From assembly GCA_965207735.1 (NCBI GenBank), contig OZ242296.1:1856001-1920000 (forward strand): DNA of 64,000 nucleotides, read 5' to 3'. Shown here piece after piece: positions 27,178 to 27,498 of the stretch. Within the stretch, counting starts at the first letter, position 1. Every line of letters begins with the position of its first letter. Below the pieces are notes generated by a model. That model had not been told where the DNA came from, ran no database searches, and worked only from the letters and a program-made list of their open reading frames with translations. The translations under genes were made by a program, and so were the position numbers. Source of the DNA: Candidatus Versatilivorator sp. Its GTDB lineage: Bacteria > Acidobacteriota > Terriglobia > Versatilivoradales > Versatilivoraceae.

Positions 27178-27265
27178 TAGGGGCAACTTTAGGGGCAACT
27201 ATATAAATCTAGAGAGTATAAATTATTTATAATCAGTAATTTATGAATTTATACTGATAGTGGGC
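27178..27265. other. Attachment arm of the element
   Basis: TAGGGGCAACT at 27178 and 27190 (arm-type direct repeats), IHF-like AATCAGTAATTTA at 27231, sharp AT-rich to host-gene transition near 27262. Confidence 0.7.
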
Positions 27266-27463
27266 ATAACAATACTTGCAGCCGAACTCGCAGCCCCGAT
27301 AAGGGTTGATGGTCCAGTAGAACGGCATTTCCGGGTTCGAGCAGCGGTTCAGCACCGATTTGACCTCGATGGACAAATAGCGGGCCCGGCGCTTTTGCAA
27401 CAATGGAGTGCTCTCCGCAGCCAGTCGGGCAATGCCTACCAGTTTGTCGGATTCCTTGGTCAT
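27233..27463 (-). pseudogene. 5' part of an Rv2578c/PA0069 (SplB-like) radical SAM DNA-repair gene, interrupted by the element
   Basis: KSVLNRCSNPEMPFYWTINPYRGCEFGCKYCYA followed by unrelated AT-rich HYQYKFINY*. Confidence 0.88.
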
Positions 27464-27498
27464 AATTATATATTCGCTTTTTATTCGCCCTATGTCAA
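27464..27498 (-). promoter_or_regulatory. Sigma70 promoter (probably leaderless) overlapped by a LexA-like direct repeat
   Basis: TTGACA (27498-27493), 17 nt, GAATAT, 6 nt, ATG. TATTCGC at 27471 and 27482 (period 11, like GTTC-N7-GTTC). Confidence 0.65.

Follow-up and report, generated by a model that had tools for sequence, protein, structure and literature searches.

A putative 43.8-kb ICE within a predicted LexA2-controlled radical SAM gene of Candidatus Versatilivorator sp.

The truncated gene, its missing half and the junctions

The window (the whole stretch of 64,000 nucleotides analyzed here, from a genome of 5.26 Mb designated G000) contains a truncated radical SAM gene with its upstream region and the right-hand part of an inserted element. 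The features of the gene and of the two junctions are as follows.

Window 27233..27463, minus strand: truncated radical SAM gene, a 76-aa ORF made of native codons 1-67, 9 element-derived codons and a stop
Window 27473..27488, minus strand: predicted LexA2-type operator GCGAATAAAAAGCGAA, a direct repeat GCGAA-N6-GCGAA
Window 27493..27498, minus strand: -35-like TTGACA, 4 nt upstream of the LexA2-type box, conserved upstream of orthologues
Window 27262..27270: attR core, GGGCATAAC on the plus strand and GTTATGCCC in gene sense
Genome 1839469..1839477: attL core, an identical copy

The stub protein reads MTKESDKLVGIARL...NPYRGCEFGCKYCYA, then HYQYKFINY and a stop. Its 67 native codons (window 27263..27463, minus strand) hold the whole CxxxCxxC Fe-S triad (C58, C62 and C65) and break after CEFGCKYCYA; nine foreign codons follow before the stop, and the sequence on the element side, below window position 27262, is AT-rich. 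A sequence-only reading of this DNA had described just such a normal start, interrupted motif and early stop, and had expected the family to continue for several hundred residues; the 67 residues are matched at the N-terminus by thousands of radical SAM proteins of ~345 aa, which run on past the break point as ...CKYCYARYTHEYMG. The best protein match to the stub is P0001 (E 1.9e-38, 88% identity, 99% coverage), and the aligned likeness to radical SAM N-termini is far beyond chance. The nearest NCBIfam families are the PA0069 and Rv2578c radical SAM families. Because the orthologue P0001 scores below both curated cut-offs (237.2 versus 360 bits for NF033668 and 229.7 versus 430 bits for NF038135), the gene is named here only as a SplB-like (COG1533-type) relative of these two families and, by these scores, is not an equivalog member.

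The promoter region has the layout TTGACA-TAGG-GCGAATAAAAAGCGAA-TATATAATT-ATG. Its TTGACA, box, AT-rich stretch and ATG are collinear with the upstream regions of the orthologues, and the promoter region of the split gene is therefore intact, as had been claimed from the sequence alone. In a simple sigma-70 promoter and terminator scan of window 26900-27700, the TTGACA promoter was not among the calls, and no terminator was detected. In G000 and in the same-genus orthologues the ATG stands only ~6-10 nt after the AT-rich end of the box (window 27461-27475), a short spacing that suggests a leaderless mRNA. In the intergenic region between the radical SAM promoter and thiD, two segments (window 27544-27604 and 27658-27797) reach depths of hundreds to >100,000 in four sequencing runs; in contigs, 27591 is followed again by 27544 after 19-22 intervening letters of other sequence, and the repeat D1 lies at window 27668-27709 and 27800-27841. 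These high-depth segments look like a dispersed or tandem short repeat family of many organisms.

When the genome was searched with P0001, exactly two pieces of the gene were recovered, both without stops, and no second copy of the gene was found in the 5.26 Mb. The 5' piece covers query residues 1-74 (G000:C1 1883242-1883463), and the 3' piece covers query residues 63-342 (G000:C1 1838645-1839484, minus strand), 16.5 kb before the first base of the window and 83 nt from the integrase ORF of the element. The sequence-only reading had placed the 3' remainder at the other end of the element, beginning near RYTHE; it was found there, outside the window and 43.8 kb away, as 278 intact codons that begin RYTHEYMG, and the radical SAM domain PF04055 is matched by this 3' piece. 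Its ORF reads MDGIRSIRDSYARYTHEYMG..., the native part entering at ...SYARYTHEYMG, and the element side adds just 11 unrelated codons and does not supply the Cys triad. A replacement 5' end provided by the element, considered beforehand as a way in which the gene might never be off, was thus not found in the ORF of the 3' piece, and neither half of the gene is decayed. An RNase P RNA gene (RF00010, 274.8 bits; L003:1985-2358, minus strand, genome 1837985-1838358) lies ~270 nt downstream of the radical SAM stop and is the block conserved at 92-98% in alignments of the flanks; this block of 400 nt had been considered as a tmRNA target beside the gene and was rejected on that identification.

The longest string common to both junctions is the 9-bp direct repeat GTTATGCCC (gene sense), whose copies are 43,793 bp apart and are each followed, after one differing base, by CTAT. 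This att core runs from the second nt of codon C65 through codons Y66 and A67 to the first nt of codon 68. Joining the halves at the core in silico gives a frame of 1038 nt and 345 codons with 0 internal stops, so the rejoined frame is open as anticipated, and the rejoined protein is identical to P0001 at 305/345 positions and to P0003 at 301/345, in each case as one ungapped block. On the plus strand the inferred sites read GATAGT-GGGCATA-ACTGTC for attP and TATAGC-GGGCATA-ACAATA for attB, and both would contain a 7-bp overlap, GGGCATA, between imperfect inverted hexamers. The best genome matches to the reconstructed 21-nt attP core are the element's own two junctions, with none better elsewhere. 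Values of dN/dS are 0.16-0.21 between the rejoined gene and three intact orthologues and 0.17-0.26 among those orthologues; the gene halves are without sign of relaxed selection, as would be expected of a recent insertion and of continued selection alike.

Both junctions might be thought to be contig-joining artefacts. Contigs of two runs from one sample (X19 and X20) cover window 26700..27574, including attR, with 0 differences, and a 524-nt contig from another study (X21) spans the same junction (window 27081..27555) in diverged form: it has 22 differing positions and 1 insertion, with 5 differences in 181 nt of element sequence and 17 in 285 nt of gene sequence, where the insertion also lies, and the part from 27241 to 27301 is free of differences. 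Nor would an exact 9-bp duplication and an in-frame rejoin come from misassembly, and we regard an assembly chimera as extremely improbable. By the X21 alignment, a second, ~95%-related lineage carries an element end in the same codon; the pairing of element and site is therefore not unique to one genome. Among the matches listed for X19 and X20, none has a loose end at 27262-27270, which has no bearing on excision, as contigs drop rare variants. Exact scans of metagenome contigs for the attR and attL junction patterns gave 0 matches each. A 746-nt contig from a third study (X24) matches the last ORF of the element over window 26700-27010 with 3 differences and is unlike it after 27010, so this 365-aa ORF also occurs in another context. 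Parts of window 26700-27260 are uncovered in X21 and X24, and runs X1-X18 contain small shares of the window.

The element and its integrase

The element and its principal genes are listed below.

G000:C1 1839478..1883261: whole element, 43.8 kb, from direct repeats and Pfam/NCBIfam matches
Window 1..27261, plus strand: right-hand 27.3 kb of the element; the left 16.5 kb precedes the window
L003:3588-4889: P4-type tyrosine integrase at the left end, ~170 nt inside; 433 aa, 411 from the likely ATG
Window 3..1523, plus strand: C-terminal part of a VirD4/TraG-type coupling protein (TraG-D_C, TrwB_AAD_bind); ORF start at L003:19484
Window 1520..2518, plus strand: VirB11-type secretion ATPase (T2SSE, E 5.8e-48)
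Window 2562..3449, plus strand: RepB-type primase (RepB_primase, E 8.5e-20)
Window 4022..5581, plus strand: ArdC-like anti-restriction protein with zincin peptidase domain (ArdcN, MPTase-PolyVal)
Window 5585..6574, plus strand: candidate relaxase (Replic_Relax, E 0.002, 18.7 bits, below the cut-off of 25.3)
Window 7980..8814, plus strand: HicA/HicB toxin-antitoxin pair (HicA_toxin, HicB_lk_antitox)
Window 9123..25133, plus strand: Hma defence cargo block (PADLOC and Pfam, as for the six entries that follow)
Window 9123-12725, plus strand: HmaA
Window 12966-15680, plus strand: Ppl-like PHP-ATPase
Window 15677-16993, plus strand: Schlafen/AlbA protein
Window 16972-19992, plus strand: HmaB methylase
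Window 19695-21751, plus strand: HEC-01 pair
Window 21792-25133, plus strand: HmaC fused to a Swt1-type HEPN domain
Window 25942..27039, plus strand: last ORF of the element, 365 aa, family-less
Window 27178..27201: two tandem TAGGGGCAACT repeats (repeat family D3), predicted arm-type integrase sites

The left 16.5 kb encodes the integrase, a primase/AAA_25 protein, VirB3, VirB4, VirB9 (57.8 bits, below the equivalog cut-off), TrbI/VirB10, TrbL/VirB6 and VirB8, with a weak VirB5 match between TrbI/VirB10 and TrbL/VirB6. We call the insert an ICE because an integrase, VirB3/4/6/8/9/10/11 and a coupling protein are present; its gene content combines VirB/VirD4 transfer genes with Hma defence cargo, and the earlier identification of the insert as an ICE is borne out by the integrase, VirB genes and coupling protein. 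Within the cargo, the Hma (helicase-methylase-ATPase) genes enclose the Ppl-like PHP-ATPase, the Schlafen/AlbA protein and the HEC-01 pair. The 365-aa last ORF has no match in Pfam, NCBIfam or PADLOC, and a 669-aa ORF and several smaller ORFs of the element are also without a family. At the end opposite to the tandem repeats, three GGGGCAA-type copies lie just upstream of int (L001 ~2455-2484), and a motif of this type also precedes related integrase genes.

A profile search of the element found no clear relaxase besides the sub-threshold Replic_Relax match, and no excisionase-like small ORF was found after int; the element might therefore be immobile. It would then be a dead end, with the gene lost for good in this lineage but not yet decayed, and the family-less 669-aa and smaller ORFs point in the same direction. 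Against this reading, which we hold to be unlikely, the integrase is full length: its residues 21-428 align to those of relatives (60-78% identity), and inspection of the sequence by eye shows the catalytic R, K, HxxR, H and Y. The transfer genes have uninterrupted ORFs, and neither att site is damaged.

The integrase carries the domains PF13356 (Arm-DNA-bind_3), PF22022 (Phage_int_M) and PF00589 (Phage_integrase) and matches NF007246 with an E value of 5.5e-78. At 80 related integrase loci (60-78% identity) a tmRNA gene (39 loci) or a tRNA gene (20 loci) lies just upstream in 59; of the other 21, one has a tRNA on its opposite side, and the remaining 20, many of which a contig end interrupts, are without either gene. 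A radical SAM fragment is found at 0/80. Within the genus, 12 of 16 integrase loci adjoin tRNA-Ser, Ala, Arg or Met, the best identity being 78%. G000 itself has a second P4-type integrase (L146, C1:2163656-2164861, minus strand), 77% identical, which adjoins tRNA-Ser(tga), and a third that is a fragment (4254058-4254441). For the element under study, tRNA and tmRNA scans found no such gene in the window or in L003, and no Rfam match was obtained in window 25000-29000; its target is codons 65-68 of a protein gene, not a tRNA/tmRNA 3' end. A shift of this integrase from tRNA/tmRNA targets to a radical SAM codon is part of the most economical reading of the locus, a recent and lineage-restricted insertional knock-out.

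The element resembles P4-type ICEs and genomic islands of tRNA/tmRNA genes in its integrase architecture, in the position of int ~170 nt inside the left end and in the GGGGCAA-type repeats and TTGACA before int, as in the P4-type relatives, but it differs from them in that the target is a protein gene, cut in its 5' fifth. The tRNA-targeting relatives carry a tRNA 3' end, whereas the attP here replaces nothing of the lost part. ICEs of the SXT/R391 group integrate in the 5' part of prfC, where SXT supplies a new promoter and a new 5' coding end and prfC is functional. The present ICE likewise lies in the 5' part of a protein-coding gene; unlike SXT, it supplies only 11 unrelated codons.

Predicted LexA2 control of the radical SAM gene

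Two lexA genes are present in the genome, and the lexA2 product is a LexA_DNA_bind plus S24 protein. Upstream of lexA2, GCGAATCAAAAGCGAA occupies the same position as the box of the radical SAM gene, after a TTGATC hexamer (L094 ~12664-12679). The 16-mer GCGAATMAAAAGCGAA occurs in exactly 2 copies in the 5.26 Mb, at the radical SAM promoter and at the lexA2 promoter, and allowing 1 mismatch still yields these 2 copies. Among the 11 same-genus loci with a 5' end, the box upstream of the orthologue is exact in 10 and has one mismatch in the 11th, and it recurs at orthologues in other families of the class while the flanks drift. It stands upstream of a lexA2-type gene at 5/5 loci from five other genomes and at 0/3 lexA1-type loci, from three same-genus genomes among the five. 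A pattern search of G404, G408, G413, G417 and G422 gave 13 sites, 10 of them at the promoter of a radical SAM gene or of lexA2; run backwards as a control, the box pattern gave 0 sites in the same five genomes.

Since the box is common to both promoters here and in five relatives, LexA control of the radical SAM gene is predicted, and the SOS-type label that the sequence-only reading had attached to the gene stands as a prediction of this kind. The gene would belong to a very small LexA2 regulon consisting of lexA2 and the radical SAM gene, and the box is predicted to be a non-canonical direct-repeat LexA operator, with this two-gene core regulon, in the acidobacterial class. A full-text search, judged by title and abstract, did not find an earlier description of a direct-repeat LexA box in the class. 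PMC8565304 reports SOS regulation of SplB (COG1533) in several species and phyla, and it counts direct repeats (GTTC-N7-GTTC) among the LexA motifs, which are said to diverge once lexA has been duplicated; the predicted LexA2 control of the radical SAM gene agrees with both statements.

At the promoter of the other paralogue, lexA1, a palindromic box, TGGACAGATGTCTAT (L092, G000:C1 ~4477033-4477047), separates the -35 from the -10 element, and this box is conserved in three same-genus genomes. The different conserved boxes at lexA1 and lexA2 therefore indicate two LexA paralogues with two motifs. At stringent settings neither the LexA1-type palindrome nor the LexA2-type box was found in the ICE, and the genome-wide matches to a Peptidase_S24 repressor and to an HTH_17 excisionase all lie outside it.

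Occurrence of the insertion and its interpretation

The site is empty in 12/12 same-genus loci (L096-L107), where the chromosomal flanks abut with exactly the 9-bp overlap and have the same neighbors. The radical SAM gene is present in 13/13 same-genus genomes and is free of an insert in the 12 with the site assembled; there is a frameshift near residue 287 in G402, and in G412 a contig end cuts the gene. In a phylum sample of 401 genomes, which takes in two unpublished ones (G152 and G024), the gene was found in 251, and among the matches listed only that of G000 is split by an insert; ~30 of the sampled genomes have two matches, and the check for splits covered part of them. Four genomes with two-piece matches (G209, G259, G308 and G352) were considered as further splits and rejected, as each has an in-frame insertion of 20-67 aa within one ORF. 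These insertions (L084-L091, in two other genera of the class), of ~20-67 aa, directly follow residue 75 and are thus a few codons beyond the Fe-S motif. Among the best 120 of 349 short (41-133 aa) homologues of the stub, 119 have the motif and 0 diverge after CYA, and P0002, P0010 and other forms of 140-170 aa, tried as instances of the same split, were rejected because they are truncated elsewhere in the gene. Across 301 genomes of the class, the right arm of the element was found in G000 only, apart from a weak 46-nt match in G401. A survey for islands at the same codon, as the sequence-only reading had proposed, gave no further one in the genomes surveyed, among the matches listed, and one instance of the same junction in the X21 contig.

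The same reading had taken the conserved Cys-motif codons for a stable integration target. The peptide KYCYARYT is nearly invariant, but the claim does not hold for the DNA itself: an exact 9-bp core is present in 1/23 orthologous loci and an exact 7-bp TATGCCC in 3/23 (23 of 24 loci read, L105 left out), the core being inexact in most orthologues because of wobble changes.

We consider it probable that the 43.8-kb ICE between codons 67 and 68 of this gene with a predicted LexA operator represents a recent, lineage-restricted knock-out, which precise excision would reverse, rather than an evolved switch. Recency is proposed because dN/dS of the rejoined gene is no higher than among the intact orthologues, and lineage restriction because the same-genus sites are empty and the right arm is found nearly only in G000. 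Several points count the other way: a gene that is selected and repeatedly restored would look equally well preserved, the X21 contig has the same junction, the 21-nt attP core looks like the element's own site and not like an accident, and the element, for which no excisionase and no clear relaxase were found, might also be immobile.

In this probable knock-out, the integrase would have recombined attP with the radical SAM attB. The intact promoter would, in the integrated state, drive the 76-aa stub alone, and the 278-codon remainder, without its native promoter and without the Fe-S cysteines, would yield no enzyme. ICEs excise by means of Int ahead of transfer. Here, the few cells that undergo Int-mediated excision would regain the 345-codon gene, and restoration of the gene would be a by-product of ICE excision, not a regulated step.

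The sequence-only reading had instead envisaged an excision-controlled SOS switch, in which DNA damage inactivates LexA and opens the promoter and also excises the ICE; we judge this unlikely. On that reading, the repair enzyme would be made only in damaged cells from which the element has been lost or in which it has become circular. Elements that split a gene and can leave it again are well known: phi10403S in comK, SpyCIM1 in mutL (DNA repair), skin in sigK and SPbeta in spsM belong to one such class, and the nifD and fdxN elements are also excisable gene-splitting elements. The class of gene-splitting, excision-restored elements is described, with a DNA repair case (Scott et al., 2008), in the relevant part of PMC8987985. 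Like active-lysogeny elements, the ICE is a recombinase element inside a coding sequence whose precise excision restores the frame, and, like SpyCIM1, it has a DNA-repair gene as its target. It is unlike that class, in which the pairing is conserved across strains and the excision signal is known, in that 12/12 sites are empty and no link to a signal was found here, and unlike phages or phage remnants in that it is a fully equipped conjugative element.

Several observations speak for a switch. Precise excision restores the ORF in silico, neither half of the gene has decayed, the promoter has a predicted LexA2 operator that is also present at lexA2, and the same junction was recovered in the contig from a second study (X21). 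SplB-type radical SAM genes are SOS-regulated in several species according to the part of PMC8565304 concerned, and excisable gene-restoring elements, including a DNA-repair case, form an accepted class in the corresponding part of PMC8987985. On the other side, the pairing is not conserved (12/12 genus loci empty), no other split occurs among the matches listed for the 251 gene-bearing genomes of the 401, none of the best 120 of the 349 short N-terminal fragments breaks after CYA, and the radical SAM gene is absent from all 80 related integrase loci. The ICE is without a LexA1- or LexA2-type box, an S24 repressor or an HTH_17 excisionase, and the host promoter cannot drive int: transcription from it would enter the element antisense to the last gene, and int is 43.8 kb off and oriented in the opposite direction. 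Taken as a whole, the sequence-only reading was right in every structural prediction, and the LexA control that it assumed is predicted; the functional switch that it built on these did not gain support. A related idea, that a retargeted tRNA/tmRNA-type integrase has created a two-key gate in which LexA2 must be inactivated and the ICE must be gone before the enzyme is made, seems to us no more probable than the switch, and we would not expect it to hold. The reading as a recent and reversible knock-out is the one that we retain.

Other selfish inserts are known in this kind of gene. In Staphylococcus aureus, a prophage with an Sa5-type integrase lies in a 'radical SAM' gene and has been discussed as a possible switch in a section of PMC6036120. 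As in the present locus, a mobile element disrupts a radical SAM gene; unlike the ICE, the Sa5-type element is a phage in a firmicute, and the section concerned gives neither family nor codon and draws no SOS link (PMC6036120). The intein-containing Rv2578c family has a profile (NF038136) whose N-extein part extends to stub residue 67 and whose C-extein part takes up again at residue 65 of P0001. By these profile coordinates, the intein site is inferred to lie within ~3 codons of the ICE crossover (window 27262-27271, codons C65-R68). Unlike the ICE, an intein is spliced from the protein and the enzyme stays active. The ICE here and the intein in the Rv2578c family give a hint that the Fe-S-motif codons attract selfish inserts.

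Should the switch be real, it would be a repair-gene switch run by a conjugative element instead of a phage. If the two-key gate were true, repair capacity would be coupled to the moment at which the element prepares for transfer, and, with an intein placed at the same three codons in mycobacterial homologues, the Fe-S codons of radical SAM genes would in general offer selfish elements a landing site. As it stands, this is a fully resolved case in which the attB of an ICE lies in the coding sequence of a repair gene predicted to be regulated by DNA damage. The apparent change of target by a tRNA/tmRNA integrase lineage may be useful for understanding how att specificity evolves, and the predicted non-canonical direct-repeat LexA operator, with its minimal regulon in the acidobacterial class, is a by-product of the analysis. 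The locus offers a natural test bed for the question of whether excision of an ICE restores a host function.
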